This document shows, piece after piece, positions 8,185 to 40,168 of a stretch of DNA of 46,105 nucleotides; within the stretch, counting starts at the first letter, position 1, and every line of letters starts with the position of its first letter. A model generated the notes under the pieces. That model searched no databases. It worked only from the letters and a program-made list of their open reading frames with translations, and was not told the DNA's origin. A program made the translations under genes and the position numbers. Source of the stretch: an uncultured Pirellulales bacterium (GTDB lineage Bacteria > Planctomycetota > Phycisphaerae > Sedimentisphaerales > Anaerobacaceae); the NCBI GenBank assembly GCA_964400665.1, contig CAYNVP010000001.1, positions 1-46,105 of the forward strand, in the 5' to 3' direction.

Positions 8185-8200
8185 CTTTTATCGAGTTTGT

Positions 8201-20057: not shown

Positions 20058-20107
20058 CGACAAGATTACAGGGGCTTTAAGAAATACTTTGCGATAGATA
20101 TATTAAA

Positions 20108-21658: not shown

Positions 21659-21780
21659 TATAGTTTAGGGAATTAGTTGTTATTCAATCTGACTTGTTTT
21701 GTCGAACTACGTTGAAGAGAATTTTCCGTAAATATTTTTAAATTTTTCGATAGTAAGCTAAATGTGCTGGAGGCAAAGTT

Positions 21781-22947: not shown

Positions 22948-22963
22948 AGGAAAAAATTGCAAA

Positions 22964-23872: not shown

Positions 23873-23904
23873 TATGAGCAAGGGTAGAATGGGAAAAGAC
23901 CGCT

Positions 23905-24642: not shown

Positions 24643-25048
24643 TTTTTCAGTTTGTTTTTATGTATCCTTTGCGATTTATATCTACCTCAGGTGGTCTTTT
24701 AAAGGCATTTAAACGGTTAAAGCTAAGACATATATTTGTTATTTTTGAAAATGTTTTCAAGAAAAGTTAAAGGTGAAGTTTATATCTCCGTTTTAGAATA
24801 TGAGGTTTCCACAATAAATTGATTAACCGGCGGTATCAAGCTTTGGGCCAAATTGAACACAAGGAAGCAAGCATGGCCATTGATATTATCACCAATACCG
24901 AAGTCCCAGCTCGAAAAGTAAATTAATATTTTTTTTGGGGGAGAGTAATCTAATCGAAATATACTTTTACAAGCCATTGTCAGGCAATAACAGAAACAGA
25001 AAAAAATATTTACAAATAGCGAACTTATCCTTATCGGGAGATTAAGTT

Positions 25049-26398: not shown

Positions 26399-27566
26399 AA
26401 AACGACTATGTGTGATTTCTGCAATTGATGTCACCTTTAAGGTTCTTCTGATAGCTCAGTTAAAGGCTGCAATGAAAGAAGGGTATACGGTGTACGGGGT
26501 CTGTACCCGGGGGGAGAAGTTTGAATGGCTTGAAAACGAAGGTGTTCATATGAAGGCCATTACGATTAAAAGAAGGATCAGCCCGTTTAGCGACTTGATT
26601 ACCCTGTGGAAACTGTTTCGATTTTTTCGGAAAGAAAGAATAGATATTGTTCACACTCATACACCGAAGTGTAGTTTGTTGGGTCAGTTGGCGGCAAAAT
26701 TGGCTGGTGTACCTGTTGTAATAAACACCGTTCACGGTTTTTATTTTCATGATAATATGAAGCCTCTTACAAAATGGTTTTACATTGCAATGGAATGGAC
26801 TGCTGGTAAATGTTCTACAATGATTCTCAGTCAGAATCCAGAAGATATTGATACGGCAATAAAGCTGGGCATCTGTAATCCTGATAAAATCAGAATACTC
26901 GGCAACGGCGTCGATCTGGCTAAATTTAATCCGAACGGATTCAATGAAAATTTCAAGGCAGAAAAGCGCAAAGAGGTCGGCCTGCCCGTCGATGCTGTTG
27001 TAATTGGAATTATTGGTAGATTAGTTAAAGAAAAAGGTTTTCTTGAATTATTCGAAGCTTTCAAAGAAATTATAAAAGAGCATAATGATGTCTGGCTTAT
27101 GGTAATCGGGCCGGAAGAACCTGAAAAGACCGATAGAATTTCTGCCGATACTTTCAAACAATATGACATAGAAAACAGAACGATATATTTGGGCGCCAGA
27201 GACGATATTCCTGAGTTATTAGCCTGTTGTGATATATATGCCTTGCCATCGTGGCGGGAGGGTTTTCCCCGCTCGGCCATTGAAGCAGCGGCGATGGGAT
27301 TACCCATAGTCACCACGGATATTCGCGGGTGTCGTCAAGTTGTTGAAGATGGCGTGAACGGATTTTTAACACCTGTACATGACATGGAGAAGTTAAAAGA
27401 AGCAATAATGAAATTGATCAACGACAAAGAAATGAGAGTTCGAATGGGCAAGGCCGGATATCACAAATCCCGAAAAGAATTTGATGAAAAAAATATATGC
27501 AGGATAGTCATCGAGACCTATGAAAATGAATTAGCGGCAAAGAGAGCTGCTTTAAACCGAGAATAA
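26343..27566 (+). CDS. Glycosyltransferase family 4 (GT-B)
   Basis: EGFPRSAIEAAAMGLPIVTTDIRGCRQVV motif. The start is uncertain. The ATG at 26343 overlaps the upstream gene by 56 nt, and an in-frame GTG at 26412 is an alternative. Confidence 0.8.
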   Translation: MLTDLRRVKVGSTVLSSNKKRLCVISAIDVTFKVLLIAQLKAAMKEGYTVYGVCTRGEKFEWLENEGVHMKAITIKRRISPFSDLITLWKLFRFFRKERIDIVHTHTPKCSLLGQLAAKLAGVPVVINTVHGFYFHDNMKPLTKWFYIAMEWTAGKCSTMILSQNPEDIDTAIKLGICNPDKIRILGNGVDLAKFNPNGFNENFKAEKRKEVGLPVDAVVIGIIGRLVKEKGFLELFEAFKEIIKEHNDVWLMVIGPEEPEKTDRISADTFKQYDIENRTIYLGARDDIPELLACCDIYALPSWREGFPRSAIEAAAMGLPIVTTDIRGCRQVVEDGVNGFLTPVHDMEKLKEAIMKLINDKEMRVRMGKAGYHKSRKEFDEKNICRIVIETYENELAAKRAALNRE

Positions 27567-27598: not shown

Positions 27599-28654
27599 AT
27601 GGCAAATTCGGATCACAAGAAGAGACATTCCATGTTATTGTTTATTGCCTGCTTTACAGTGGTAGTTTTTGTAATGCTTTTTGCCAATTGGCAATCTTTG
27701 CTTGTGAGAGAGGTCCGTTTTCAGCAGAACAATGGCGTTGCTTACCTGTTTACACGCGGGAGTTATCTGGTTGCGGTCTGTCACGACGGCAAGGTTTATG
27801 TGTGGGATTGGGACAATCTGTCAGCCAAGCCGGGAATTGTCGACGCGCAGTCCGATCAAGCCGCTTTGCTGGAGTCGGGTCGTGTGGTATCAGTCCGGCA
27901 GTCAAATGCAAGGAAGATTGTCGTATCAGAATTGGACGACGGAAAGGTGTATAAAGAAATACCTATTGCAGCTGAAGATAAACAGGTGCGCTTGGTAGTC
28001 AACCGCAGCGGCGAGACCGTGGTGGTTATGCTCGCCGATGCGAGCAGCGGGACAAGCAGCGGCGACCAGGAAGTGATGCTGTTGGATTGTGATGCTGGCC
28101 TGGTTCGTCCAATCGCTAATCTGGCGGAGGCGGCAGAGGACCGAATAATGGGTTTGGCTGTTTCGGATGATGGCGGCCTTGTCGTGCTGGCGGGTGAGAA
28201 AGACGGGCAAGGGTATGTAGTCCTGGTCAACATGGAACAAAAGCGAGCATCCTGGGCTCAAATATTGCCTGACCTGCAGAAAGTGCGCAGCACCGTTTTC
28301 TCCACGGATGGCAAAGTCATTTATATTAGAGGCACAGACAGCACCGTGCAGACACTGAACGCCGAGACCGGCAGTGTCATTAAGAAGTTACTGCCTGTTA
28401 AAGAAAATAGGAGCACTGCAGGCGACCAGAACGTTCAAACGCTGGCGACCAGTGACGACGGGCGTTTCATGGCAGCCAGCATTTCAAGTGCCGTTTATGT
28501 GTGGGATTGCAAAACACAGAAGCTTGTTTTCAGTAAAGGGCCGGGGCATAAGGTGGTCAGCGGGCTGACGTTTTCGCCGGATTCAAAATTTCTGGCGACA
28601 AGTGACACCAGACAGGGCGGCACAATCAAAATCTGGCGTGTTCCAAAACGCTGA
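27599..28654 (+). CDS. Membrane-anchored WD40 / beta-propeller repeat protein
   Basis: N-terminal TM segment LLFIACFTVVVFVMLFANW. Repeats end in VYVWDWDN, VYVWDCKT and GGTIKIWRV. Confidence 0.7.
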   Translation: MANSDHKKRHSMLLFIACFTVVVFVMLFANWQSLLVREVRFQQNNGVAYLFTRGSYLVAVCHDGKVYVWDWDNLSAKPGIVDAQSDQAALLESGRVVSVRQSNARKIVVSELDDGKVYKEIPIAAEDKQVRLVVNRSGETVVVMLADASSGTSSGDQEVMLLDCDAGLVRPIANLAEAAEDRIMGLAVSDDGGLVVLAGEKDGQGYVVLVNMEQKRASWAQILPDLQKVRSTVFSTDGKVIYIRGTDSTVQTLNAETGSVIKKLLPVKENRSTAGDQNVQTLATSDDGRFMAASISSAVYVWDCKTQKLVFSKGPGHKVVSGLTFSPDSKFLATSDTRQGGTIKIWRVPKR

Positions 28655-28671
28655 TTGGCTGCGGGACGTAA

Positions 28672-29316
28672 ATGGACGGGACAATTCAGCATTTTGTAAA
28701 GCGCACAATCGATGTTATTGCAAGCATCGTGGGACTGGTAGTACTAAGTCCTTTGATTGTAATACTGGCAGTGATAGTGCGTGTGAAACTCGGCTCGCCG
28801 GTATTGTTCAGGCAACAGCGTCCCGGGCTTGCCGGCAGGCCGTTTTGGCTTTTCAAATTTCGCACTATGACCGACCAGTGCAATGCAGCTGGCCGGTTGT
28901 TGCCGGACGAGCAGCGTCTGCCGGCGTTTGGGCATTTCCTGCGAAGCACGAGCTTGGATGAGCTGCCTGAGCTTTTCAACGTCTTAAAAGGTGATATGAG
29001 CATTGTCGGCCCCCGGCCGCTTATGCTGAAATACCTTGGCAGATATACGCCTGAGCAGGCCAGACGTCACGAGACCAAGCCCGGCATCACCGGCTGGGCG
29101 CAAATTAACGGTCGAAACGCAATCTCGTGGGAAGACAGGTTTAAGCTTGATGTCTGGTACGTTGACAACTGGAGCTTGTGGCTCGATTTGAAGATACTGG
29201 CCAGGACCATTATATTGGTGTTCAAAAGAGAAGGGATTACTCAACAGGGCAGAGCAACTATGGATGAGTTTATGGGGACACCTCAACCAACACAAAAGGA
29301 TCCGCCGAGATGCTGA
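28672..29316 (+). CDS. Small monotopic phosphoglycosyl transferase (PglC/WbaP-C-terminal-type sugar transferase), initiating enzyme
   Basis: KRTIDVIASIVGLVVLSPL re-entrant helix, LDELPELFNVLKGDMSIVGPRP and PGITGWAQINGR motifs. Confidence 0.9.
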   Translation: MDGTIQHFVKRTIDVIASIVGLVVLSPLIVILAVIVRVKLGSPVLFRQQRPGLAGRPFWLFKFRTMTDQCNAAGRLLPDEQRLPAFGHFLRSTSLDELPELFNVLKGDMSIVGPRPLMLKYLGRYTPEQARRHETKPGITGWAQINGRNAISWEDRFKLDVWYVDNWSLWLDLKILARTIILVFKREGITQQGRATMDEFMGTPQPTQKDPPRC

Positions 29317-30557
29317 CCTACGAGCAGATTAAAGATATCGAGTCGCGGTTCGGCTCGCCGTTTTATATCTTTGATGAAGCAGCTTTTGTGAAGAATTACG
29401 ACGATATAATGTCGGCATTCTCACGCAGGTACGAAAAATTTATATTGGCCTATTCCTATAAAACCAACTACATCCCCTATTTATGCAGGATTATCAAATC
29501 AAAGGGAGGATTTGCTGAAGTCGTGTCGCGGATGGAATATGACCTCGCCTTACGCATAGGTCAAGACCCAAAGAAAATCATCTTCAATGGACCTGTGAAA
29601 AGCTACGACGATATAGAGCTCACGCTAAAAAATGAAAGTATCGTTAATCTGGATTCGGAGTACGAGCTTGATTATGTACGAAGATACGCAGCCGACAATC
29701 CCGGCAAGAAGGTAAAGGTGGGGCTTAGGATAAACATCGATTTAACGGATGAAAATGGTGTGTCGCACTTGTATGAGGGTATGCGCGCGGGCAGATTCGG
29801 TTTTTCAACGGAGGGTGATAACATTGCAGGGATTATTTCGGAATTGAGCCGAGCAGACAATGTAACAATTAACTGTTTGCATGGGCATAGTTCTGCCTGG
29901 GACAGAAGCGTCTGGTGCTATGAAAAAATAACAAGAACGCTATGCGATATCGGCTCACGGTATACGCCGGAAACAGTCGAATACATCGACATCGGCGGGG
30001 GGATATACGGCTATATACCGCCTCAGATGAAGCGAGTGCAGACGCCCAATTTTGACGACTACGCCAAGGGCGTCTGCGATGTTTTGATGGGCAACCCCTG
30101 GTTTAAACGCCGCCGACCTTATCTTGTTCTTGAGCCGGGCGTTGCTATGGCCGCCAATACGATTAGCTACGTGACTAAGGTTGTCAGCGTCAAGACCATA
30201 AAAGGCCAGGTGTTCGTAACCGTGGACGGCAGCGCGTTTCATACCAAGCCCACCTTTCACAAGATAAATAATCCCAGCATCGTGATTAGCAAGGCCAACG
30301 GGGGACAGCGAGGTGTGTATAACGTGGTGGGCGCAACGTGTATGGAAAAGGATTACTTGCTGACGGATGTCGAAGGCGTTTTACCTAAGCGCGATGATTA
30401 TATCAAGATTGACAGCGTCGGGGCATATACGATTGTTCTTTCGCCGACATTTATACACGCTGCGCCTGCGATAGTGGTCGGGCAGGGCGGGCAGTATAAA
30501 CAAATCCGAAGGAAGCAGAACTTGATGGATATGTTCGGTTGCTACTCGTTCGATTGA
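29310..30557 (+). CDS. PLP-dependent decarboxylase, Orn/DAP/Arg decarboxylase family 2 (alanine-racemase fold)
   Basis: FGSPFYIFDE, YSYKTN (PLP lysine), IDIGGGIYG and CMEKDYL motifs. It overlaps the upstream gene by 7 nt. Confidence 0.8.
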   Translation: MLTYEQIKDIESRFGSPFYIFDEAAFVKNYDDIMSAFSRRYEKFILAYSYKTNYIPYLCRIIKSKGGFAEVVSRMEYDLALRIGQDPKKIIFNGPVKSYDDIELTLKNESIVNLDSEYELDYVRRYAADNPGKKVKVGLRINIDLTDENGVSHLYEGMRAGRFGFSTEGDNIAGIISELSRADNVTINCLHGHSSAWDRSVWCYEKITRTLCDIGSRYTPETVEYIDIGGGIYGYIPPQMKRVQTPNFDDYAKGVCDVLMGNPWFKRRRPYLVLEPGVAMAANTISYVTKVVSVKTIKGQVFVTVDGSAFHTKPTFHKINNPSIVISKANGGQRGVYNVVGATCMEKDYLLTDVEGVLPKRDDYIKIDSVGAYTIVLSPTFIHAAPAIVVGQGGQYKQIRRKQNLMDMFGCYSFD

Positions 30558-30558
30558 A

Positions 30559-31113
30559 ATGAGCCCATCGAGGAATCAGGAACAAATGAGAATAGTCGGG
30601 CAAAAGGTGGCGTTGCGAGAGATGGAAAAGGCCGACGTTGCGCACAAGGTCAAATGGTTTAACGACCCGGATGTCAACAAAACGCTGCTTATGGAGGAAA
30701 AGCTCGAACTGGACAAATCGCTTGAGTGGTTCGAGCAAACGAGAAACGACGCCTCGAGACGCGATTTTGTAATTGAAACGAGCGAAGGCAAGCCGATAGG
30801 CATTATAGCTTTGGTGCATATAAGCGATGTTCACAAGACGGCGGAGATTTATATTGTGATTGGCGAGAAGGATTACTGGGGTAAAGGCGTAATGCTCGAA
30901 GCCGAATCTCTCCTTATTGACTGGGCGTTCAACTTTTTGAAACTCGAAAAAATCTGGGCCGATGTTTACCCGAACAATATAGCCAGTATAATTACAATGA
31001 AAAAACTTGGTTTTCAAATCGAAGGAACTTTACGAAGAGAAAAAAAAATACGAGGCCTGAGAATCGACGTCATTCGCGTAGGCCTTCTAAGAGAAGAATT
31101 TAACCCGAGATGA
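30559..31113 (+). CDS. GNAT family N-acyltransferase (RimJ/PseH-like)
   Basis: The pattern LREMEKADVAHKVKWFNDPDVNKTL...WGKGV is typical of this GNAT subgroup. It starts 1 nt after the upstream stop. Confidence 0.7.
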   Translation: MSPSRNQEQMRIVGQKVALREMEKADVAHKVKWFNDPDVNKTLLMEEKLELDKSLEWFEQTRNDASRRDFVIETSEGKPIGIIALVHISDVHKTAEIYIVIGEKDYWGKGVMLEAESLLIDWAFNFLKLEKIWADVYPNNIASIITMKKLGFQIEGTLRREKKIRGLRIDVIRVGLLREEFNPR

Positions 31114-31505
31114 ACCTTCATCATATCGCCTATGTTTGTAAAAATGTGGAGGAAAAAGCCAGGTCGCTTTGCGAGCAGTTTGGCTTTAAAATAATATCCG
31201 AACCCGTTGTAGATGAATATCAGGGCGCTAAAATTCTGTTTGTTCAAACCGGGGACGGAACCAAAGTCGAGCTTCTTGAACCTTATGGAGAAAACAGCCC
31301 CGTCAGGAAACACCTGGATAAAGGCGGCGGACTATATCACTTCTGTTTCGAGGTCGAAGACCTCACGAAAACACTTGAAACAATAACGTGTGATAATAAA
31401 GCTTTCGTAGTCAGGCCGCCTGCGAAGGCGCCTGCGATGAAAAATAAAAAAGTCGCTTTTATCGTAACGGCGGAAAAAGACATTGTTGAATTTGTCGAAA
31501 AATGA
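31110..31505 (+). CDS. VOC-superfamily protein, methylmalonyl-CoA-epimerase-like
   Basis: LHHIAYVCKN and GGLYHFCFEVEDL metal-ligand segments. Length is 131 aa. ATGA overlap with the GNAT gene. Confidence 0.65.
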   Translation: MNLHHIAYVCKNVEEKARSLCEQFGFKIISEPVVDEYQGAKILFVQTGDGTKVELLEPYGENSPVRKHLDKGGGLYHFCFEVEDLTKTLETITCDNKAFVVRPPAKAPAMKNKKVAFIVTAEKDIVEFVEK

Positions 31506-31522
31506 CTTCGTTGAGCCGATAA

Positions 31523-33271
31523 ATGAGATTATCCGCGATTGCAAAAACTTTAAAATCAAACGGCTGGCTCGCCTTCAGGCGCATAGCCGAACAAATCAGT
31601 CAGGCGGTTCTCAATAAAACTGCCAAGAACAGCCATAAATTAAAAGTGGCTTTTGTCAGCTCGTATACGGTCGACCCTTTGATTGATTATCTTGTTGTAA
31701 AGGCAGCCGAAAATGATATTGCATTGGATATTTATAAAGGCGAATACGGCCAAATAAACCGGGAAATACTTGACTTTAAAAGCGGTCTTTATAAGTTCAA
31801 TCCGGATATTACAATTCTTGCGGCGGAGTCGGGCGGCATCGACGCAAATCCGGTCCTGGCTGCGGAACAGATAATTAAGCTGGCTCAGGTTTTTAAGGAC
31901 AATTCAAAAAATGTACTTGTTGTATGCACCTTTATTTCACCGCCTGCCTGGCCTTTGCATATCCTCGAAACAGAAACCGAAATATCCTGCCGTAATGCCA
32001 ATAATCTATTAAAGGAAAAATTTCAGGATGACCCACGGGTACAAGTGCTGGGTGTTGACGCTCTGGCGGCGTACTTTGGATACCGTAACGCGTTGTCGCC
32101 GGAAATGATGAATATGGCCAGGATACCCTTCAGCGAGCCGTTCCTTGAGCTGCTCTCGCTTAAAGTAATGTCCCTTATAAAAGCAAGATTGAACCTGATA
32201 AAGAAATGCCTCGTGCTGGATTGCGACAATACGCTTTGGGGCGGCATTATCGGCGAAGACGGCATCGACGGGATAACCCTCGGGCCGGATTGGCCGGGAC
32301 GCGAATACGTTAATTTCCAAAAAGCAGTCCTCGAGCTCTATCAGCAGGGCGTCATTCTGGCGATTAACAGTAAGAATAACGAGCAGGACGTGATGCAGGT
32401 CCTGCGGGAACACCCGCATATGATACTTAAGGAAGAGCATTTCGCGTCCATCATTGTGAACTGGGACCCCAAGCCGCAAAATATGGTCAAACTTGCCGAC
32501 CAGATGAATATCGGTCTGGACAGTTTGGTTTTTGTCGATGACAATCCGGCCGAACGGCAGCTTATGCGCCAGATGCAGCCGCAGGTCGAGGTCCTGGAAA
32601 TGCCGGACAATCCCGCCTTGTTTGAAAAAACGCTTAGGGAAACGTCCTTTTTCGCAAAGGCATCTTTGACCGAAGAGGATAAAAAACGAGGCGAGATTTA
32701 TGCCGCCCAGCGCAAGCGAAAGGAGCTGCAAAAAAGCTTCGTATCATTAGATGATTTCCTGAAGTCCCTCGAGATGGTTTGTTCGATTCGGCTGGCAGAG
32801 GAAAAAGATACAAAACGGGCCGCCCAGCTAACCCAGCGAACGAATCAGTTCAATCTGACAACTCGCCGCTATAGCGAAGCGGATATCACGGGCTTATTGG
32901 CAAATCCTGATTGGCGGATTTATGTTCTTGGGTTGAAAGACAAGTTCGGCGATAATGGGACGGTTGGACTGGCTTTAGTGGAGACGGGGGCGAAGTTTTG
33001 GCGCGTGGATACTTTCTTAATGAGCTGCCGGGTTATAGGCAGACAGGTTGAAGACGCGCTGGTGGACCGGATATGCCGGGATGCAATCGAAACCGGCTGC
33101 GTTAAAGTCGCCGCGGAATACATTCCCACGGCCAAAAATAATCCGGCGGCTGATTTCTGGGACAAAAGCGGTTTCAGGAAATTGGCGTCTGAGAAAAATG
33201 CCGCCTGCTACGAGATGCTTTTGAAAGAATATAAACCGAAGACCCTGAAATATCTTGACTGGAGAAGGTAA
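31523..33271 (+). CDS. FkbH-like HAD-IIIC phosphatase / acyl-loading enzyme
   Basis: The HAD motif I LDCDNTLWGG is present. So is the C-terminal FkbH-type segment FLMSCRVIGRQVE, which carries the conserved Cys. Length is 582 aa. Confidence 0.8.
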   Translation: MRLSAIAKTLKSNGWLAFRRIAEQISQAVLNKTAKNSHKLKVAFVSSYTVDPLIDYLVVKAAENDIALDIYKGEYGQINREILDFKSGLYKFNPDITILAAESGGIDANPVLAAEQIIKLAQVFKDNSKNVLVVCTFISPPAWPLHILETETEISCRNANNLLKEKFQDDPRVQVLGVDALAAYFGYRNALSPEMMNMARIPFSEPFLELLSLKVMSLIKARLNLIKKCLVLDCDNTLWGGIIGEDGIDGITLGPDWPGREYVNFQKAVLELYQQGVILAINSKNNEQDVMQVLREHPHMILKEEHFASIIVNWDPKPQNMVKLADQMNIGLDSLVFVDDNPAERQLMRQMQPQVEVLEMPDNPALFEKTLRETSFFAKASLTEEDKKRGEIYAAQRKRKELQKSFVSLDDFLKSLEMVCSIRLAEEKDTKRAAQLTQRTNQFNLTTRRYSEADITGLLANPDWRIYVLGLKDKFGDNGTVGLALVETGAKFWRVDTFLMSCRVIGRQVEDALVDRICRDAIETGCVKVAAEYIPTAKNNPAADFWDKSGFRKLASEKNAACYEMLLKEYKPKTLKYLDWRR

Positions 33272-34120
33272 ATGGAATCCAAAATACAGCAAAAATGTGT
33301 GGCTTGTGAAAGCACGCAAAATATTCCGATTAATCTCAAATCCGGCTATGAAGGAAGAAAATGCCGGAATTGCAATCTTGTATGGGCGGTAAACGCTCTG
33401 GGCACAAAACAATTATATGATTCAGCGTATGATAAAAACTCAGAATGGTTTGTCTGGCAAAATTACATAAACGCCCATCAAAAAGTGAAATCGACACAAC
33501 GGGCTTCGCTTAACTGGTCTGAAAATTATTTTTTGAAAAAAATTAAACCCTTCGGCTCAAAGAATCTTCTTGAGATAGGATGCAGTGTCGGCAGGTTTCT
33601 TTTTGGATGCAGGGATAACGGCTGGCAAATCCATGGTTTAGATATCAGCAGTAAAGCAATTGAGATGTCTAAAAATCTTTTGCCGGGCGGTGATTATCAG
33701 ATCGGAACTGTCGAAGAGTCAAAGTGGCCGGAAGAAAGTTTTGAAGCAATCACATGCTGGGAAGTGATAGAACATGTAAGCGACCCTTTTATTTTTGTAA
33801 GTAAAGTGAAAGAATTGCTTGTGAAGAACGGTTTTTTCGCTTTCAGCACGCCTGACTGGGATAACTGGATTATTCGTAAACATTCCCAGAAAAATTACTG
33901 GCCGCCTTACCATAACTGGTTTTTCAGCGAAAAAAATATTAATGCGCTGCTTGGGAGGGCCGGCTTAAAAATAATAGAAATAAAACGACGTCCTTTCCCG
34001 TGGTCTGAGACCTGGTGGCCGCGCTGGCGGAGAGTTTTATCCTTACCATGGCTTGTTTATAAGGGTGTGATTTTAGGCCAGGGAGGAGGGAGAATTACTG
34101 TCTTGGCGAAAAAATCATAA
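33272..34120 (+). CDS. Class I SAM-dependent methyltransferase with an N-terminal Cys4 zinc-ribbon
   Basis: CVACES...CRNCNL followed by motif I LLEIGCSVGRFL. The ATG directly abuts the FkbH-like TAA. Confidence 0.7.
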   Translation: MESKIQQKCVACESTQNIPINLKSGYEGRKCRNCNLVWAVNALGTKQLYDSAYDKNSEWFVWQNYINAHQKVKSTQRASLNWSENYFLKKIKPFGSKNLLEIGCSVGRFLFGCRDNGWQIHGLDISSKAIEMSKNLLPGGDYQIGTVEESKWPEESFEAITCWEVIEHVSDPFIFVSKVKELLVKNGFFAFSTPDWDNWIIRKHSQKNYWPPYHNWFFSEKNINALLGRAGLKIIEIKRRPFPWSETWWPRWRRVLSLPWLVYKGVILGQGGGRITVLAKKS

Positions 34121-34142
34121 TCGCACGTTATTACGGTTATAT

Positions 34143-34373
34143 ATGTATAAGCAATTAGAGAAAATATTCCACCAGGCGTTCGGCGTCGATAAAGTCGACG
34201 AGTCAATGTCAATAAATAACGTCACGGGCTGGGACTCGATGGCCCACGTGGGATTGATTCTTTCGCTGCAGAAGGAATTCAAAGTGTCCATCTCCCCTGC
34301 GGATGCAATAAATTTGACCAGCGTAAAAGATATCATCCGGTATCTGATGAATCGAGGAGTTCCGCAGGAGTAA
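34143..34373 (+). CDS. Acyl carrier protein
   Basis: 76 aa with GWDSMAHVGLILSL, where the DS motif carries the phosphopantetheine serine. Confidence 0.75.
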   Translation: MYKQLEKIFHQAFGVDKVDESMSINNVTGWDSMAHVGLILSLQKEFKVSISPADAINLTSVKDIIRYLMNRGVPQE

Positions 34374-34437
34374 TTGATTGAAGCCCTCGACTAACCTTTC
34401 CGGCAACACAACAACAAATTTTTTATAGCGGGGAATT

Positions 34438-35748
34438 ATGATTGACCGAGAAAAACGGCCTGATGCCGGCGATAAGATAAAGACCGTTGCTGTTCTCGGC
34501 GCAAGCGGTACCATAGGAAGTCTTGCGGGTGGGCTGATTGCGCAAAACGGCCTTAAAGTTTATTTTCTGAGCCGCACTAAGGAGGGTTCTGAGCGAGGCC
34601 TGCAAAAAGCGATAGCACAAGCGCGTTCGGAAATGATAGCACATAACGTCGTATGCGGGGACTATGAGCGGCTGTTTGCCGATGCCCTCGCCGAGGCGGA
34701 CTGGGTAGTCGAGGCGATCGCCGAAGATGTCGGCATAAAACAGAAGATGCACGAACAGGTCGAGGTGTATAGAAAGCCGCACGCAATAGTCAGCTCAACA
34801 ACGTCGAGTTTGCCGTTGTCAACGCTGGTGCAGGGACGCAACGAGGATTTCAAAAGGCATTTTCTTTCGACTCACTTTTACAATCCGCCGGGTCGATTGC
34901 CCGCCTGCGAGCTGACAGGGATTGAACAAACACAGCCGGACGTTGTGGATTTTATGCGGCATTTTCTCACAAAGCGGCTAAGGCGCGTTGTTATACCCGT
35001 GAAGAATATTGCCGGCTTTGCCGGAAATCGAATTGCGTTTTTGCTTTTCAGTCGGATTACTTCACTGGCCCGTGAATTCGGCGTGGAGATGATGGACTAC
35101 CTCATTGGGCCATATACAGGCCGGCTGATGCCGCCCCTGGCCACCCTCGATTTGGTCGGATTGGACATCCACAAGGCAATTATCAGCAGCCTGGATGCAA
35201 ATACCAGCGACCCGATGCACAACTGGCTGTCGGTGCCCGGTTACATCAATACGATGATTCAAAGAAATCTGTTGGGCAAAAAGACGGGGGGCGGTTTCTA
35301 CAAGAAGCTTGAGAGCGGCAAATGCGTGTTCCTGGACCCTGTTAGCTGCGATTATATACCTGCCATAGAGCCGCATGTGGCGTTCGTTGAAAAAGCAAAA
35401 CACTTCATTCGTATGGGGATGTATAAGAAGGCCTTTGAGACAATACTGTCTGCCCAGGGAAAAGAGGCAGAGGTCGTTAAGGATATCCTGTGCGCGTATG
35501 TTGCATATTCGTATTCTCTCATAGGAGAGGTTACAGACAGCCGGATTGGTATCGATGGAATCGACAAGGTAATGTCTTATGGATTTCACTGGGCGGCCCC
35601 GAGCGTGATTGTGGAGATGCTCGGCGGCTGCAAAACAGCAGCTAAATTGCTTGCCGAGAGAAAATTGCCCGTCCCGCAAGGTCTGCTTAGCGACTTGAAA
35701 TCGGGCTTTAGAATTACCAACTCCGGCAAGTACTTCGTTGCCAAATAA
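34438..35748 (+). CDS. 3-hydroxyacyl-CoA dehydrogenase family protein (long form)
   Basis: VAVLGASGTIGS Rossmann motif, HFYNPP and the 3HCDH C-terminal domain pattern. Confidence 0.75.
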   Translation: MIDREKRPDAGDKIKTVAVLGASGTIGSLAGGLIAQNGLKVYFLSRTKEGSERGLQKAIAQARSEMIAHNVVCGDYERLFADALAEADWVVEAIAEDVGIKQKMHEQVEVYRKPHAIVSSTTSSLPLSTLVQGRNEDFKRHFLSTHFYNPPGRLPACELTGIEQTQPDVVDFMRHFLTKRLRRVVIPVKNIAGFAGNRIAFLLFSRITSLAREFGVEMMDYLIGPYTGRLMPPLATLDLVGLDIHKAIISSLDANTSDPMHNWLSVPGYINTMIQRNLLGKKTGGGFYKKLESGKCVFLDPVSCDYIPAIEPHVAFVEKAKHFIRMGMYKKAFETILSAQGKEAEVVKDILCAYVAYSYSLIGEVTDSRIGIDGIDKVMSYGFHWAAPSVIVEMLGGCKTAAKLLAERKLPVPQGLLSDLKSGFRITNSGKYFVAK

Positions 35749-35768
35749 ACGTATAAGAGAGTGAGCAG

Positions 35769-37007
35769 ATGAAAAACGAATCAGTATATATTCTCGGCGG
35801 TTACCAGACCGATTTTGCCCGTAACTGGGCAAGAGAAAATAAGCACATTGCGGCATTGATGCGAGAGGCATACCAGGGCAGCATCGAGGCGACTGGGATA
35901 GAACCCGGCGACATTAAGGCGGCGTTTATAGGTAACTTCGCCGGCGAGTTGTATTGTATGCAGGGGCATTTGGGGGCGTTTTTCGTGGATTTTGACCGTC
36001 GCTTTGTCGGGCTGCCCACAATGCGGTTCGAGGCCGCCTGCGCCGCCAGCGCGGTGGCCGCGGCGGCAGCAATGGCACACATTAAGGCAGGCATTTATGA
36101 CCTGATATGTGTAATCGGCGTCGAGCTAATGAAAACGGCCGATTCGGCCAAAGGCGGCGATTACCTCGGAACAGCCGCCTGGTATGAAAAAGAGTGCGCG
36201 GGCGTGGAGTTCCCCTTTCCCAAGCTGTTCGGCAAATTAGGCGATGAATACGACAAGCGTTACGGCCTTGACAATCAACACTTGGCCCGTATTGCACAAA
36301 TCAACTATACCAACGCAAAAAATAACCCTAATGCCCAGACCCGTGACTGGTTTATGAGCTTCGAGCACGCCTGCTCAACGGGCAAATACAACTCTGTTGT
36401 CAGCGGTAGAATCAAGGTTACCGACTGCTCCCAGATAACAGATGGCGCTGTGTGCCTGTATCTTGCCTCCGAGGCGTATGCTGCCAAATATGCCAAACAA
36501 AGGGGGCTTAAGCTTGAAAATATCCCTCGAATTCTCGGCTGGGGGCATACAACAGCCCCAATCGAGTTTGCTGGAAAAGTTGCGGATTCCAAAGACGATG
36601 AGTATGTGCTGCCGATGACCCGAAAGGCGATAACAGACGCATACAGCAGGGCGGGCATAAAGGATTGCTGGGATTTGGATTTGATTGAGACACACGATTG
36701 TTTTACTACCTCGGAATATATGGCGATAGACCACTTTGGGCTTACCAAGCCGGGCCGGTCGTGGGAGGCAATCGAAAACGGCATAATCGAAATGGACGGC
36801 AAGCTGCCAATTAACCCTTCCGGCGGTCTTATCGGCTGCGGCCATCCCGTCGGCGCCACCGGTACAAGGCAATTACTGGACGCATATAAGCAGCTTACGG
36901 ACACCGCAGGCAATTATCAGATACCCGGCGCAAAAAAAGTCGCTACACTTAACATCGGCGGCACCGCAACAACAAACGTCTGCTTTATCGTGGGAGCCAA
37001 TGGCTGA
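35769..37007 (+). CDS. Thiolase-fold condensing enzyme (acetyl-CoA acetyltransferase / SCP-x-type thiolase-like)
   Basis: Nucleophile Cys in FEAACAASAVA, plus the C-terminal GCGHPVGATG and NIGGTATTN. Confidence 0.8.
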   Translation: MKNESVYILGGYQTDFARNWARENKHIAALMREAYQGSIEATGIEPGDIKAAFIGNFAGELYCMQGHLGAFFVDFDRRFVGLPTMRFEAACAASAVAAAAAMAHIKAGIYDLICVIGVELMKTADSAKGGDYLGTAAWYEKECAGVEFPFPKLFGKLGDEYDKRYGLDNQHLARIAQINYTNAKNNPNAQTRDWFMSFEHACSTGKYNSVVSGRIKVTDCSQITDGAVCLYLASEAYAAKYAKQRGLKLENIPRILGWGHTTAPIEFAGKVADSKDDEYVLPMTRKAITDAYSRAGIKDCWDLDLIETHDCFTTSEYMAIDHFGLTKPGRSWEAIENGIIEMDGKLPINPSGGLIGCGHPVGATGTRQLLDAYKQLTDTAGNYQIPGAKKVATLNIGGTATTNVCFIVGANG

Positions 37008-38892
37008 CACAATACCGAATGCCGATGAAGTCAGGATTACCACGTTATTGCCCGAACACGCAAGGGCCGTGGCAGAATTACACATATCCGGCATAAAAAC
37101 CGGCTTTATCAGCTCTTTAGGCCTTGACTTTGTGACTGCTCTTTACGAAGCAATAGCCAAAAGCACATACGGATATGGTTTTGTCGCAATTATGCACGGC
37201 AGGGTAGTCGGTTTCGCGTCCTTTGCCACGGACCTCGGCGGCCTGTACAAGTCTGTGATTCTCAAGAACGGCCTTCGATTCATCTTTTCACTGGCGCGCA
37301 AGATGATGTCGCCCAAGGTAGCCAGAAAGGCCCTTGAAACGCTGTTCTACCCAACGCGCATAAGAAATATGCAATTGCCCGCAGCGGAGTTTCTCTCGAT
37401 GGTAGTTTCAGCAGATGCCCGTCGAAAGGGTCTGGCGACCGAATTCATAAAGGTCGGCTTTGCCGAAGCCGCATCAAGAGGTATAGAAAAGCTCAAAATT
37501 CTTGCGGCGGTGGATATAAAGCCAATCAACAAGTTGTATGAGAAGCTGGGTTTTGAGCTTGTCGGGCAGATAGACAATCACGGTGTAATAAGCAATGTGT
37601 ACGTGGCGAGGACGGACCATTTTGATGTTGCCGGAGGGGAAACTCGAAGGACAGTTGCTAAAAACCAACGGTCACTCGCCGGGAACAAAGCTATTGCTGA
37701 AGGGCTTGGTAGTGTGTTTGTCACTTATGGATGGTGTCGCACAACATATGCTGTCGTTTTGTCCTTGGGCAGGAGAGGTATAGGCGTTCACGTCAGCGAC
37801 GCGTCATCGATCGCGATGTCCCGTTACTCACGATACTGCAAGTCATACACCAAGGTTCCTGACTTCTTTGTCGAGCCGGACAACTATTTCGAAGCAACCT
37901 GTGAGGCGCTAAGAAAAACGGACGCCCGGGTTTTACTGCCGTGCCACGAGGACGTGGGTATATTCTGCAGACGCAAAAAGGAATTGCCACAGGGAGTTCT
38001 GACGTCATTGCCGGATTGGGACAGTTACCGTGTGGCGGAGGATAAACTAAGTGTTCTGGACGTGGCTGCCAAGGCCGGCTGTCCTGCGCCGATGACCACA
38101 AAAGTCGAGTCCTGGGACCATCTTGAGGACCTGTCGAGGTCTTCGGAGTGGCCGATTGTGTTAAAAACGCACATAGGAAACAGCGCCAAAGGTGTGCGAA
38201 TCGCCCGCAATCGGGAAGAGCTTTTCGCCAAATACAAAGAACTTGTCGAAACGTTCCGTCTGCCTCAGGAAAGATGGCCTTTTTTGCAGGAGTTTTTGCC
38301 CGGGGACGCGGCGGGCGTATGTATGTTGTATCAGAACGGCCGGTGCGTGACCAGCTTTGCCGAGCAATACATAAGGTGCAAAGAGCCGGGGAAATTCGGG
38401 ACATCTACCCTCCGAGAACCGTTCGAAAATCCGCACCTTATAGCACGGGCCACTGCCGTAATGGACAGATTGAAATGGCACGGTGTGGCGCATATCGATT
38501 TCGTCGCAGACAAGAATGGTGATTTCAGATTGATAGAGGTCAACCCCCGCCTGTGGGGTGCCTTGGCGCTGTCTATGTTTTCGGGAGTCGATTTCCCCTA
38601 CCTGTGGTATCTGGCGGCGGTAGGAGAGTCCATCGAAGGATTGGCTGCCTCGAAATATCCGCCGATAAAATGCAGGTGGATAGTAGGCGATTGTCTGGCA
38701 TTTATGGAGCTTGTTAAGCGCGGCAAGCTGGCGGAGGCGATGCGGATTCTTGCCCCACAGCGAAAATGCTATCACGACGACTTTGTTTTATTAGATCCGC
38801 TGCCGTTTCCGTTCGAACTGACGGACTACGTGGCAAAATTCTTGAAGTCGGGCGGGTCAGTCAATCCGGTGACCGGGGGAATGGTGCGTTGA
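37000..38892 (+). CDS. Fusion protein with an N-terminal GNAT acyltransferase domain and a C-terminal ATP-grasp ligase domain
   Basis: The GNAT acyl-CoA motif DARRKGLATEFI...LYEKLGFE covers aa 1 to about 205. ATP-grasp features cover aa about 240-630 (EDKLSVLDVAAKAGCPAP, WPIVLKTHIGNSAKGVRI, HIDFVADKNGDFRLIEVNPR). It overlaps the thiolase gene by 8 nt. Confidence 0.75.
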   Translation: MADTIPNADEVRITTLLPEHARAVAELHISGIKTGFISSLGLDFVTALYEAIAKSTYGYGFVAIMHGRVVGFASFATDLGGLYKSVILKNGLRFIFSLARKMMSPKVARKALETLFYPTRIRNMQLPAAEFLSMVVSADARRKGLATEFIKVGFAEAASRGIEKLKILAAVDIKPINKLYEKLGFELVGQIDNHGVISNVYVARTDHFDVAGGETRRTVAKNQRSLAGNKAIAEGLGSVFVTYGWCRTTYAVVLSLGRRGIGVHVSDASSIAMSRYSRYCKSYTKVPDFFVEPDNYFEATCEALRKTDARVLLPCHEDVGIFCRRKKELPQGVLTSLPDWDSYRVAEDKLSVLDVAAKAGCPAPMTTKVESWDHLEDLSRSSEWPIVLKTHIGNSAKGVRIARNREELFAKYKELVETFRLPQERWPFLQEFLPGDAAGVCMLYQNGRCVTSFAEQYIRCKEPGKFGTSTLREPFENPHLIARATAVMDRLKWHGVAHIDFVADKNGDFRLIEVNPRLWGALALSMFSGVDFPYLWYLAAVGESIEGLAASKYPPIKCRWIVGDCLAFMELVKRGKLAEAMRILAPQRKCYHDDFVLLDPLPFPFELTDYVAKFLKSGGSVNPVTGGMVR

Positions 38893-40009
38893 GTTCTGTG
38901 GGATTAGCACCTCGCAGCCCCGTCATTTTGAGGTATCCCATCTTCCAGACCGCCAACGCTGACACAAATACTACCGCGGCACATACAACGGCTGCGGCGA
39001 GTATCGGCAGCAGGCCGACAATAATCCCCACAACTGCATACAATGCTGTCAGTCCGTAGCAAAGTGCGACGGTCTTCCTTACAGATAATCCCCGGTCCAT
39101 CATCTGGTCGTAAATATGGCCTCTGTCTGAGACGAACAGGGGTCTTTTGTTGACTATTCGCCTGGCGAATGCGACCGTGGTGTCGAGTATGGGCAGGCCG
39201 AAAATAACGACAGATGCCAGCCAGAATTGCGGGGCCTTTTCCGCAAAGAGAATCATCAGCGCGGCCATATTCAGCCCCAGCAGCAAACTGCCCGCGTCGC
39301 CCATAAAAATCCGTGCCGGATGATAATTGAATGGCAGAAATCCGCATACGCTTCCCAGTAAGGCCAGACAAATAATGGCCCTTACCGAGTCGCCCTGCAG
39401 GCCATCCTGAACGATTCCCATCAGGGCCGCCAATAATAGCATCCCGCCTGCACAAACTATTGTCACGCCGGCACATAGCCCATCCAGCCCGTCGAGCAGA
39501 TTCAGCGAATTTGTAGCACCCAGCACAAAAACCATTACGAATACGATGTCCACGACGAGCCTGGTCGGCTGGCCGAGAGAATAAAGCATCGGCGATATTC
39601 CCGCTGCTACCAGCACAAACCCCGCTGCAACCTGCCCGAGTATCTTCTGCCAGGGCCTTATATCGGTAATGTCATCGATACAGCCCACGGCACAGACAAT
39701 CGCGCCTGCGCTGATGATTCCGAGGAGCCATTTACGTGTAATCGGAGGATAGTCGGCTGGTAAATAAAACAGGGCCATCAGGATACCTGCGGTCAGCCCT
39801 ATGAATATACCAACGCCGCCTAAATATGGTATCGGTTTGCGGTGTGTTTTGACGAGGTTGTCGGGTTTATCGACGATACCCAGCCGAAGTGCGATTTTCT
39901 CGCACAGCCACGTTGCGACCACGGCGCTGATGAATGAAACCAAACCGACGGGCCAATACTTCAGCGGCCAGGTCAGCGGCTTTCCAGTTGCGAGTATAAG
40001 TTCGAACAT
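38861..40009 (-). CDS. Polyprenyl-phosphate N-acetylhexosamine-1-phosphate transferase (MraY/WecA family, GT4 of the polyisoprenyl-P class)
   Basis: NSLNLLDGLDGL and CIDDITDIRP motifs and about 10 TM helices. The ATG at 40009 follows GGAGAAA. The ORF opens at the GTG at 40024. Confidence 0.85.
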   Translation of the reverse strand: MFELILATGKPLTWPLKYWPVGLVSFISAVVATWLCEKIALRLGIVDKPDNLVKTHRKPIPYLGGVGIFIGLTAGILMALFYLPADYPPITRKWLLGIISAGAIVCAVGCIDDITDIRPWQKILGQVAAGFVLVAAGISPMLYSLGQPTRLVVDIVFVMVFVLGATNSLNLLDGLDGLCAGVTIVCAGGMLLLAALMGIVQDGLQGDSVRAIICLALLGSVCGFLPFNYHPARIFMGDAGSLLLGLNMAALMILFAEKAPQFWLASVVIFGLPILDTTVAFARRIVNKRPLFVSDRGHIYDQMMDRGLSVRKTVALCYGLTALYAVVGIIVGLLPILAAAVVCAAVVFVSALAVWKMGYLKMTGLRGANPTELNAPFPRSPD

Positions 40010-40168
40010 CCATTTCTCCGGCACATTCTAAAAAGCACGGTTACACTTTATTGCCGGCGAGGCGATTTGTCCAGTCCGGTTACGTATTTTGGAAAACCCG
40101 GAGCTGTCTGGACAGTCTCAATTCTAACGCCTAAACTGTTGTGGGTTTGTGAAGGTCCTAAGCGTATG

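Follow-up and report, generated by a model that had tools for sequence, protein, structure and literature searches.

A mosaic eleven-gene run at the end of a planctomycete polysaccharide locus: a scaffold with two candidate acyl-donor cassettes

The 46,105-nucleotide stretch analysed here (the window; contig CAYNVP010000001.1 of an uncultured planctomycete of the Phycisphaerae, order Sedimentisphaerales) carries eleven open reading frames (ORFs) at positions 27599-38892, all on the plus strand, at the end of a glycosyltransferase-rich locus. Comparison with related loci revealed that these genes are a mosaic, composed of a scaffold and of sub-modules that are independently gained and lost, and not one pathway. 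We propose that they represent the conserved "decoration end" of a Wzx-type surface-polysaccharide locus, in which a scaffold is combined with two independent, swappable acyl-donor cassettes and the decoration is assembled by ligation, decarboxylation and capping; we give this reading a probability of about one half.

Gene content, family membership and catalytic motifs were read from profile scans of the window ORFs of at least 150 amino acids (aa; Pfam, and NCBIfam/TIGRFAM with curated cut-offs) and from PDB sequence searches for relatives. The gain and loss of modules was followed in 17 distinct loci, the window and 16 related Sedimentisphaerales/Phycisphaerae loci (designated L001, L007 and so on). 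The latter were gathered by a genome-collection scan based on FkbH alignment and by exact-protein look-ups of FkbH, decarboxylase and thiolase homologues, and were compared by tblastn and ORF clustering. Window proteins were 55-94% identical to metagenome-assembled proteins of Sedimentisphaerales and other Phycisphaerae (Planctomycetota); where readable from the record names, the samples of the relatives originated from fen, peat (SPRUCE) and groundwater. The eleven genes and the one that faces them are as follows.

27599..28654, plus strand: membrane-anchored WD40 beta-propeller protein, 351 aa (WD40/beta-propeller Pfam profiles; one N-terminal transmembrane (TM)-like segment)
28672..29316, plus strand: PglC-type polyprenyl-phosphate phosphoglycosyl transferase (PGT), 214 aa (PF02397 Bac_transf, 221 bits, profile positions 1-179)
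29310..30557, plus strand: fold-type III pyridoxal phosphate (PLP) decarboxylase, LysA/FslC/BtrK-related (PF02784, PF00278)
30559..31113, plus strand: GNAT N-acyltransferase of the Acetyltransf_3 type, here GNAT4 (PF13302, 94 bits)
31110..31505, plus strand: VOC/methylmalonyl-CoA-epimerase-like protein, 131 aa (PF13669, 66 bits)
31523..33271, plus strand: FkbH-like loader with FkbH_N, HAD-IIIC phosphatase and C-terminal Cys acyl-transfer domains (TIGR01686, 334 bits against a cut-off of 146.65)
33272..34120, plus strand: class-I S-adenosylmethionine (SAM) methyltransferase with an N-terminal CxxC...CxxC motif (PF13489, 79 bits)
34143..34373, plus strand: stand-alone acyl carrier protein (ACP), 76 aa (PF00550; GWDSMAHV with Ser32)
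34438..35748, plus strand: 3-hydroxyacyl-CoA (3-hydroxybutyryl-CoA) dehydrogenase, here 3HCDH, 436 aa (PF02737 3HCDH_N, PF00725 3HCDH)
35769..37007, plus strand: SCP2-type (acetoacetyl-CoA) thiolase (NF004936 PRK06289, 601 bits against 375)
37000..38892, plus strand: fusion of a GNAT (residues ~1-215; Acetyltransf_1/7 at 56-186) and an ATP-grasp ligase (~234-630; ATP-grasp_3/ATPgrasp_Ter at 346-544)
38861..40024, minus strand: WecA/MraY-type polyprenyl-phosphate N-acetylhexosamine-1-phosphate transferase (PF00953, 117 bits; 11 TM-like segments)

The exact eleven-gene set was found only in the window. FkbH and ACP were present in 15 of the 17 loci, and a frame recurred: WD40 protein, PGT, PLP decarboxylase and GNAT4 on one side and, beyond intervening genes, a WecA-like transferase and, in nearly every case, an ATP-grasp on the other, either fused to the GNAT or as a stand-alone gene after WecA. 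The frame is followed by the same housekeeping neighbours, namely a 409-444-aa protein with no Pfam match, VanZ, a nitroreductase-DJ-1 fusion and NadE. Between the PGT and the WecA-like transferase the gene order was kept in all 17 loci, at the end of glycosyltransferase-rich regions. What fills the frame varied. L087 was minimal (WD40-PGT-decarboxylase-GNAT-FkbH-ACP, WecA, ATP-grasp). L090 consisted of WD40-PGT-decarboxylase-GNAT4-FkbH-methyltransferase-ACP-[GNAT-ATP-grasp], with no thiolase or 3HCDH; L091 of WD40-PGT-decarboxylase-GNAT4-3HCDH-thiolase-[GNAT-ATP-grasp], with no FkbH, methyltransferase or ACP; and L093 of WD40-3HCDH-thiolase-[GNAT-GNAT-ATP-grasp]-WecA. L092, the relative nearest to the window (94% identity for the thiolase and 82% for the decarboxylase), had all genes except those for the VOC protein and the methyltransferase. 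Thus, FkbH and ACP with their tailoring genes (cassette 1) stand alone in L090, and 3HCDH and thiolase with their GNAT (cassette 2) stand alone in L091 and L093, which argues for a mosaic instead of a single ACP-centred pathway; the recurrence of these sub-modules in the same order and position argues against a chance juxtaposition.

Our model divides the genes accordingly. The scaffold would comprise the WD40 protein, the PglC-type PGT, the LysA/FslC/BtrK-like decarboxylase, the SpeG/PseH-like GNAT4, the ATP-grasp and the convergent WecA-like transferase. For cassette 1, FkbH would dephosphorylate 1,3-bisphosphoglycerate and load the glyceryl unit onto ACP, and two tailoring enzymes of the window would act on it, the VOC protein in C2 epimerisation or isomerisation of the 2-hydroxyacyl thioester and the SAM methyltransferase in O-methylation. 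For cassette 2, two acetyl-CoA would be condensed to acetoacetyl-CoA and reduced to 3-hydroxybutyryl-CoA, which would be used by the GNAT domain fused to the ATP-grasp. Assembly could then proceed in four steps: the ATP-grasp would join an amino acid to a sugar by an amide bond, through a sugar amine or a uronic-acid carboxyl; the decarboxylase would remove the alpha-carboxylate of this amino acid, leaving a primary amine; the GNATs would cap the free amines with (O-methyl)glyceroyl and 3-hydroxybutanoyl; and the PGT would put the modified sugar, or the repeat unit containing it, on the polyprenyl carrier. Glyceryl-ACP and 3-hydroxybutyryl-CoA are suggested as donors by what is known of the enzyme families, and the ligate-decarboxylate-cap order, the pairing of each GNAT with a donor and the acceptor sugar are put forward as a hypothesis only.

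The composition of cassette 2 was the more regular. The 3HCDH-thiolase-GNAT triplet occurred in seven of the 17 loci and always together (the window, L092, L084, L091, L001, L014 and L093). The 3HCDH accompanied the thiolase in all seven, including L091 and L093, which are free of FkbH and ACP, and was absent from nine of the 15 loci with FkbH and ACP. Because the cassette exists without FkbH and ACP, and the 3HCDH never without the thiolase, the dehydrogenase probably works with the thiolase on CoA esters, and cassette 2 appears to be a CoA-based supply of 3-hydroxybutyryl-CoA and not an FkbK-type step on glyceryl-ACP. In line with such a role, the closest PDB match of the 3HCDH was the 3-hydroxybutyryl-CoA dehydrogenase 9fbd (5e-25), and the thiolase matched the trypanosomatid SCP2-thiolase-like protein 3zbg (3e-54), other SCP2-thiolases (3e-54 to 7e-39) and the archaeal acetoacetyl-CoA thiolase 6esq (4e-34). 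The motifs of the window thiolase are Cys91 (read from the translation), HDCF at 309-312 and GHP at 358-360. The thiolase was 75-94% identical to all 119 other homologue clusters listed, and every source name given was from Planctomycetota; a 77%-identity homologue picked at random, a 410-aa variant (L093), also lay within a glycan locus. No other gene of the set comes near this degree of conservation, which is a strong constraint for a donor-supply enzyme.

The two halves of the GNAT-ATP-grasp fusion differed in their conservation. For the GNAT half, identity was 82% with L091 and 76% with L084, which have the thiolase cassette, and 55% with L090, which does not; for the ATP-grasp half it was 86% with L090 and L091 alike. 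This covariation of the GNAT half with the thiolase cassette makes the fused GNAT a likely 3-hydroxybutanoyl transferase. The fused form was present in six of the 17 loci, and full-length fusions were found in only a few 50%-identity clusters; the GNAT of L001 and L014 is a separate gene of 211-218 aa, and residues 234-630 of the fusion match a family of ~400-aa stand-alone ATP-grasps. At positions 9255-11762 of L093, an Anaerohalosphaeraceae-like contig without PGT, decarboxylase or FkbH, we observed an 835-aa GNAT-GNAT-ATP-grasp triple fusion.

Regarding cassette 1, the FkbH-like protein scored 77 bits with the HAD-IIIC model, against a cut-off of 35.75, and its DCDNT (DxDxT, 233-237) and SCRV (Cys502) motifs were invariant in 24 homologues; from work on OzmB, we take the HAD DxDxT to be the phosphatase motif and the C-terminal Cys to be the acyl acceptor. 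FkbH and ACP make glyceryl-S-ACP from 1,3-bisphosphoglycerate in the OzmB and FkbH systems, and the same reaction is predicted for the window protein by analogy. Its only solved relative was the uncharacterised Bacteroides protein BF1531 (PDB 3slr), which likewise has an FkbH_N domain. The ACP, next-but-one gene after FkbH in the window, carries the GWDSMAHV motif with Ser32 invariant in seven orthologues; in 55 of 81 loci an ACP was encoded no further than 5 kb from FkbH, and in most of the close loci it was the next gene.

The genes around this pair changed from locus to locus. The methyltransferase, predicted to O-methylate the glyceryl unit, occurred in four of the 17 loci only: the window, L084 (78% identical), L090 (75%) and L007 (74%). 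The VOC protein occurred in five (the window, L001, L007, L008 and L009) and was absent from L092, L084 and L090; it scored 66 bits with TIGR03081, under the cut-off of 115, and its best PDB matches were 3hdp and 2qh0 (1e-21), uncharacterised clostridial glyoxalase-I-like proteins with generic names, presumed to be structural-genomics entries, with methylmalonyl-CoA epimerase weaker (2e-9). The GC content at third codon positions (GC3) was 0.43 for the VOC gene and 0.42 for the methyltransferase gene, versus 0.52-0.61 in the neighbouring core genes, and because of this low GC3 and of their absence from L092 the two look like recently inserted tailoring genes. The slot between GNAT4 and FkbH was empty in L084, L086, L087, L090 and L092. 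In four loci (L085, at 6898-9996, L010, L011 and L012) an HgdA/B-type 2-hydroxyacyl-CoA-dehydratase (HGD-D) subunit pair fills the VOC slot, and a BcrAD/BadFG-type activator gene follows it in L085, L010 and L011. This suggests a dehydration of the glyceryl (2-hydroxyacyl) thioester by the HgdA/B-like set. The presence of an oxygen-sensitive radical dehydratase within a polysaccharide locus (L085, L010-L012) is unusual.

Turning to the scaffold, the decarboxylase was present in 14 of the 17 loci. It scored 177 bits with the lysA model TIGR01048, short of the cut-off of 297.9, and its PDB matches were LysA 2p3e (3e-31), the N-citrylornithine decarboxylase 7kh2 (8e-31) and BtrK (5e-23), with the entries 2j66 and 7ru7 of this clade at ~5e-23. 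It keeps the PLP lysine, Lys51 (YKTN), and HGHS, GGG and GAY; with respect to LysA, EPGR is changed to EPGV, RPxxY to KPTFH and CE(S/T)GD to CMEKD (CMQHD in FslC). The EPGR and RPxxY motifs of LysA are presumably the residues that bind the distal carboxylate of diaminopimelate (DAP). The enzyme is apparently not a bona fide diaminopimelate decarboxylase. Public pipelines use this name for the family (29310-30557 in the window, homologues P0122-P0240), and because the lysA cut-off was missed and EPGR and RPxxY are absent, the naming is probably a systematic misannotation.

GNAT4, encoded one nucleotide further on, was present in 16 of the 17 loci with 70-77% identity to the window protein, irrespective of the presence of FkbH. 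Its scores were under the equivalog cut-offs of both SpeG (77 bits against 218) and PseH (73 bits, E = 3e-20, against 93.1), and because both were missed we regard it as an Acetyltransf_3-type GNAT of undefined specificity; among solved structures it matched SpeG, a polyamine acetyltransferase (2e-18), and PseH (1.5e-5). L087, the minimal locus, offers no candidate other than GNAT4 for taking glyceryl off the ACP. The two GNAT domains of the window, GNAT4 and that of the fusion, are unrelated at the sequence level.

As for the lipid-carrier enzymes, the PGT aligned with the catalytic C-terminal region of the EPS_sugtrans, WcaJ and WbaP models and has hydrophobic segments only at residues 8-45, an N-terminal hairpin, as expected of PglC-type small PGTs. 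The WecA-like gene scored 111 bits with TIGR02380, under its cut-off. It adjoins the module in 16 of the 17 loci (L010 ends short) with 45-64% identity, and is convergent in all relatives but L093, where it is co-directional. The WD40 gene lies directly upstream of the PGT gene in nearly all relatives, and of the 3HCDH gene in L093; its product evolves fast, with 27-70% identity among relatives versus 63-83% for the neighbouring PGT.

Several observations weigh against our model. The "scaffold" itself is not invariant: L093 has no PGT or decarboxylase, and L014 has no decarboxylase. The fused ATP-grasp shared 22% identity (E = 7e-12) with the stand-alone PylC-like ATP-grasp that follows WecA in other relatives and for which the PDB search gave only the structural-genomics entry 2pn1, and the two may not be functionally equivalent. 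GNAT4 was as conserved in L091, which has no FkbH or ACP, as elsewhere; because of this its donor may simply be acetyl-CoA, and for the same reason any assignment of glyceryl-ACP unloading to an enzyme of the window is tentative. Since its PseH score is near its SpeG score, direct acylation of a nucleotide-sugar amine by GNAT4 is equally possible. The function given to the VOC protein is a guess, and neither a uronic-acid dehydrogenase nor a phosphopantetheinyl transferase (PPTase) is encoded in the window. Finally, three query proteins drew the related loci, so that the locus counts are descriptive and not those of an unbiased sample, and all of the relatives are metagenome-assembled.

Among the alternatives, direct N-acylation fares best, although we consider it unlikely. 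Here the two GNATs, PseH/QhbA/FdhC-like, would put glyceroyl and 3-hydroxybutanoyl on the nucleotide-activated amino sugar that is the PGT substrate, and the decarboxylase and ATP-grasp would make an unrelated substituent, perhaps as in C. jejuni Cj1438, where an amine is amide-linked to a uronic acid. The PseH-model match of GNAT4 (73 bits, E = 3e-20) is in agreement with it, as are the DegT, the LbH acyltransferase and the LegB/RmlB-like short-chain dehydrogenase/reductase (SDR) in the same locus, the DegT gene directly adjoining the module in L008, L087, L006, L010 and L011, and the sugar deacetylases and LbH/GNAT acyltransferases often found near more distant FkbH-ACP pairs. Such acylation has precedents in pseudaminic acid bearing di-O-methylglyceroyl at position 5 (PMC3068675) and in QuiNAc4N(3-hydroxybutyryl) made with ItrA1/QhbA (PMC3628348). 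However, it leaves unexplained both the constant decarboxylase-GNAT4 pair with its 1-nt spacing and the recurrent GNAT-ATP-grasp fusion (6 of 17 loci), and among solved structures GNAT4 comes closest to polyamine acetyltransferases (2e-18, versus 1.5e-5 for PseH).

The preliminary description of this DNA had read the eleven genes as a single pathway, centred on the ACP, in which methoxymalonyl-ACP logic is combined with the formation of 3-hydroxybutyryl-CoA. FkbH, 3HCDH, methyltransferase and thiolase would act in turn on an ACP-bound unit (methoxymalonyl-/hydroxymalonyl-ACP-like, possibly with a Claisen extension) to give one acyl group. We now find this improbable. FkbH, ACP, a 3HCDH-family enzyme and an O-methyltransferase do make up four of the five FkbG-K functions, and the eleven genes are tightly packed on one strand; however, L090, L091, L092 and L093 display separable sub-modules. 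3HCDH and thiolase occur without FkbH, methyltransferase or ACP in L091 and L093, the converse holds in L090, the 3HCDH is never without the thiolase (7 of 7), and the methyltransferase is absent from L092, which keeps the 3HCDH. The methoxymalonyl part was not borne out either, with no FkbI/ZmaE-type acyl-CoA dehydrogenase domain in any window ORF of at least 150 aa, a 3HCDH that occurs without FkbH/ACP and a thiolase of the SCP2 CoA type, not a ketoacyl-ACP synthase (KAS). Of the co-conservation expected in relatives, that of the whole block failed and that of the sub-modules, in the same order and position, was confirmed.

More improbable still is a butirosin-like route, in which the ATP-grasp, like BtrJ, would charge the ACP with an acidic amino acid, the decarboxylase, like BtrK, would act on the resulting aminoacyl thioester and a GNAT would transfer the omega-aminoacyl group to a sugar, with FkbH supplying a second unit. 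The decarboxylase is homologous to BtrK (5e-23), and ACP, ATP-grasp and GNAT are all present. Nevertheless, L091 and L093 have the ATP-grasp without an ACP in the cluster, L091 with the decarboxylase as well; the ACP goes with FkbH (the two are no more than 5 kb apart in 55 of 81 loci); and the decarboxylase is more similar to LysA and FslC than to BtrK. The least probable explanation, which we consider remote, is that the genes are not glycan-related and make a free small molecule or lipid (siderophore-like or polyamine-derived), or form a chance housekeeping neighbourhood (lysA, fatty-acid/butyrate metabolism): the pipeline names "diaminopimelate decarboxylase" and "acetyl-CoA acetyltransferase" (the thiolase), the siderophore pathways in which FslC-type decarboxylases work and the unusual conservation of the thiolase (75-94% among the clusters listed) speak for it, and against it stand the gene order kept in all 17 loci at the ends of glycosyltransferase-rich regions, the location of the randomly sampled 410-aa thiolase variant (L093) in such a locus, the missed lysA cut-off with replaced DAP-binding residues, and the absence of genes for transporters or for synthetases of the nonribosomal peptide synthetase-independent siderophore (NIS) type.

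Other elements of the preliminary description held up. The coordinates of the eleven ORFs and five overlapping or abutting junctions were reproduced: PGT and decarboxylase overlap by 7 nt (29310/29316), decarboxylase and GNAT4 are separated by 1 nt (30557/30559), GNAT4 and VOC share an ATGA at 31110, FkbH and methyltransferase abut as TAA-ATG (33271/33272), and thiolase and GNAT-ATP-grasp overlap by 8 nt (37000/37007). The five remaining spacers measure 17, 17, 22, 64 and 20 nt, and such tight spacing is ordinary for bacterial operons. Profile searches (Pfam/NCBIfam) agreed with all eleven domain calls and detected no domain of polyketide synthases (PKSs) or nonribosomal peptide synthetases (NRPSs) in any window ORF of at least 150 aa, as claimed for a glycan-decoration set without a megasynthase. 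The FkbH/ACP acyl-loading pair was substantiated by the TIGR01686 score, the invariant motifs and the ACP serine, and the GNAT or ATP-grasp enzymes are still the likely transfer steps.

Because the next gene (38861-40024) is convergent, the plus-strand run ends at 38892; upstream it is co-directional over the whole of 10041-38892. At 27566/27599, GC3 rises sharply from 0.39 to 0.56. This step lies between a variable low-GC glycosyltransferase region and the conserved end of the locus, and is a module boundary, not a promoter. Scans for promoters and terminators were uninformative (34 promoter-like sites versus 24±5, and 24 terminator-like sites versus 20±4, in shuffled sequence), and for this reason the operon boundaries are putative.

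The upstream region, 10041-27566 on the plus strand, encodes a 4,6-dehydratase/epimerase-like SDR, a GFO/IDH/MocA oxidoreductase, an LbH N-acyltransferase, a DegT aminotransferase, Wzx, a RimK-like ATP-grasp, a 9-TM Wzy candidate, three glycosyltransferases (GT1/GT2) and a CapK-like adenylating enzyme. The earlier label of a Wzx/Wzy locus is supported for Wzx (PF01943, 48 bits, 10 TM-like segments) and rests for Wzy on the topology of 20108-21658 (nine TM-like segments, a large loop, no Pfam match). Synthesis of UDP-GlcNAc3NAcA of the WbpB/E/D type was considered for 10041-13915 and set aside, since the NCBIfam matches fit 4,6-dehydratase/4-aminotransferase families equally well; the SDR is LegB/RmlB-like, and DegT scored 260 bits with the PseC model, under its cut-off of 423.5. 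Because these matches fit several families, we leave the sugar of the locus undefined; no nonulosonic-acid synthase of the NeuB/PseI type was found among the window ORFs.

It is worth describing four further genes of the window. The CapK/PaaK-like adenylating enzyme at 25049-26398 (104 bits with the DVU_1553-family model, under the cut-off) overlaps the next GT1 ORF, counted from its first start codon, by 56 nt, in an arrangement kept upstream of the module in L092; it could provide another amide-forming step for the same glycan. A second ATP-grasp, of the RimK/LysX type (17448-18512), lies in the low-GC variable part, is unrelated to the ATP-grasp of the module and is a hint that this polysaccharide bears one more amino-acid substituent; as a counterpart of the relatives' stand-alone PylC-like ATP-grasp it was rejected, with no significant similarity. 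Downstream, 40067-41401 encodes a 444-aa protein with no Pfam match and no TM segment that adjoins the WecA-like gene in most relatives, and 42203-43501 a conserved nitroreductase-DJ-1/PfpI fusion of 432 aa.

Beyond the close relatives, we examined 68-69 more distant loci with FkbH (34-41% identity), spread over many phyla of bacteria and also Asgard archaea. In 43 of 68 an ACP was near FkbH, in 16 of 68 a VOC gene lay within 5 kb of it, and at least 38 of 69 held a homologue of a window glycan gene. Within two genes on either side of FkbH (131 proteins), methyltransferases were the commonest upstream neighbours (18 in total), followed by LbH acyltransferases (16), SDR/ketoreductase (KR) proteins (14), MaoC dehydratases (13), VOC proteins (13), polysaccharide deacetylases (12), PPTases (10), AMP-ligases (8) and GNAT or Antibiotic_NAT proteins (7); no ketosynthase (KS)/PKS or NRPS domains were among these top neighbour families. 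PKS-free FkbH-ACP cassettes are, then, widespread in glycan loci, and annotated plasmids provide two examples, one with FkbH-ACP-WcbI-like acetyltransferase-SDR and one with a fused FkbH inside an exosortase-type polysaccharide locus. In contrast, no homologues of the decarboxylase, the WD40 protein or the thiolase cassette were found in any distant FkbH locus, and their combination with FkbH-ACP is lineage-specific to Sedimentisphaerales.

Asgard metagenome-assembled genomes (L019-L022, L026, L028 and L033) carried polysaccharide deacetylase, PPTase, FkbH and ACP, mostly with an opposite-strand VOC gene, and in some of them a p27-type zinc-ribbon protein follows. As these archaeal loci share the arrangement, the FkbH-ACP-VOC triad is not confined to bacteria. 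Two distant loci have DUF2172/DUF4910 proteins beside the FkbH-ACP pair, possibly related to the aminopeptidase-like Cj1295, which is needed for the methylglyceroyl-pseudaminic acid modification.

Glyceroyl, O-methylglyceroyl, lactoyl and 3-hydroxybutanoyl are rare N-acyl groups and common antigenic determinants of bacterial surface glycans. In the literature searched there was no paper assigning acyl-donor supply genes for glycerate-type groups or a function to the PKS-free FkbH-ACP cassettes of glycan loci, and no biochemical study of FkbH in a glycan pathway. The locus and its relatives, which amount to natural "knock-ins" and "knock-outs", provide a genetically clean hypothesis for this supply: FkbH and ACP would give a C3 unit, diversified by a plug-in methyltransferase, VOC protein, 2-hydroxyacyl dehydratase or KR/dehydratase (DH), and the thiolase/dehydrogenase pair would supply 3-hydroxybutyryl-CoA in organisms that perhaps lack another source. 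If this is true, hundreds of genes in polysaccharide loci that now bear the name "HAD-IIIC family phosphatase" or "diaminopimelate decarboxylase" could be given new annotations, we would know where the methylglyceroyl on Campylobacter flagellin sugars comes from, and glycans could be acyl-diversified with a small enzyme toolkit. The locus also documents how Phycisphaerae generate surface-glycan diversity; no Phycisphaerae glycan structure came up in this work. A bolder generalization, which we regard as quite doubtful, would make the ligate-decarboxylate-cap tailoring an undescribed Sedimentisphaerales system with the first assigned non-polyketide use of FkbH-made glyceryl-ACP, and would trace the glyceroyl, methylglyceroyl and lactoyl N-acyl groups of microbial glycans in general to PKS-free FkbH-ACP cassettes.

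The literature searched held no characterised locus with the eleven-gene composition, as the preliminary description had supposed, and comparisons must be made part by part. The FkbH/OzmB methoxymalonyl-ACP, tetronate and ZmaN (zwittermicin) loaders share with the window protein the FkbH domain, the DxDxT and Cys residues and a dedicated ACP alongside. Unlike these polyketide systems, the window has no PKS, NRPS, FabH-like or FkbI partner, and no PKS/NRPS module to consume an extender unit was found in it or in the flanks of the related loci; it adds an extra FkbH_N domain, a polysaccharide locus and a predicted acceptor that is a glycan amine and not a polyketide chain. A DH-KR-FkbH-ACP series is the lactate-loading logic of some trans-acyltransferase PKS loading modules, and in 13-14 of the distant FkbH-ACP loci the pair is flanked by a MaoC-type dehydratase and KR/SDR, a likeness in which a C3 glyceryl thioester would be tailored before transfer. 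Here, however, the enzymes are free-standing and the contexts are those of glycans, and the tailoring slot of the window and its relatives is occupied by a VOC protein, a methyltransferase or HgdAB-like subunits.

With BtrI/BtrJ/BtrK, which make the 4-amino-2-hydroxybutyrate (AHBA) of butirosin, and with FslC and N-citrylornithine decarboxylase, the window decarboxylase shares a fold-type III clade. The substrate of FslC, N-citrylornithine decarboxylase and BtrK is an amino acid whose side chain is already conjugated, and the CM(x)xD motif, in place of the CE(S/T)GD of LysA, is common to FslC and the window enzyme. As in butirosin synthesis, the decarboxylase is accompanied by an ATP-grasp and an ACP. 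Yet the identity is low, NIS synthetases are absent and the setting is a glycan locus, and in L091 decarboxylase and ATP-grasp occur without an ACP in the cluster, one elsewhere in that genome being possible; the butirosin-type logic is a resemblance only.

Amino sugars with 3-hydroxybutanoyl, made beside PglC-type transferases, are well known from Acinetobacter. In KL1-type Acinetobacter baumannii, ItrA1 with QhbA/QhbB/Gdr leads to UDP-QuiNAc4N-3-hydroxybutyryl, and the PglC-family initiating transferase adjoins the N-acyltransferase that places 3-hydroxybutyryl on the amino sugar; no genes for 3-hydroxybutyryl-CoA supply are described there (PMC3628348). The window differs in its dedicated thiolase and dehydrogenase and in the fusion of the GNAT to an ATP-grasp. 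3-Hydroxybutanoyl transferases of the Psb5/FdhC type are known, FdhC being a GNAT, and no sequence similarity to FdhC appeared in the PDB search.

The modification N-(2,3-di-O-methylglyceroyl)-pseudaminic acid occurs on the flagellin of C. jejuni 11168 (PMC3068675) and has also been seen as a CMP-sugar (bioRxiv 10.64898/2026.04.20.719630), and in the glycosylation locus of this strain the fkbH-domain gene cj1302 adjoins cj1301, annotated as an "epimerase" (PMC7099621). This di-O-methylglyceroyl-pseudaminic acid of Campylobacter appears to be the nearest chemical precedent for the decoration proposed here; the literature searched held no biochemical characterisation of the Campylobacter genes. 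The Campylobacter system is a protein O-glycosylation with a nonulosonic acid, whereas the window has no NeuB/PseI-type genes, and the decarboxylase, ATP-grasp, thiolase, 3HCDH and PglC-type PGT have no counterpart in the Campylobacter module. Genes for a PseH-like GNAT, for ACPs and for a methyltransferase presumably lie in its region as well, a content that would match the GNAT-VOC-FkbH-methyltransferase-ACP genes of the window in a different order, with Cj1298-Cj1302 as candidate orthologues.

In summary, the eleven genes are built wholly from known enzyme families and fit the known theme of surface-sugar N-acyl diversification, and they are of more interest as a modular system than as a single pathway.

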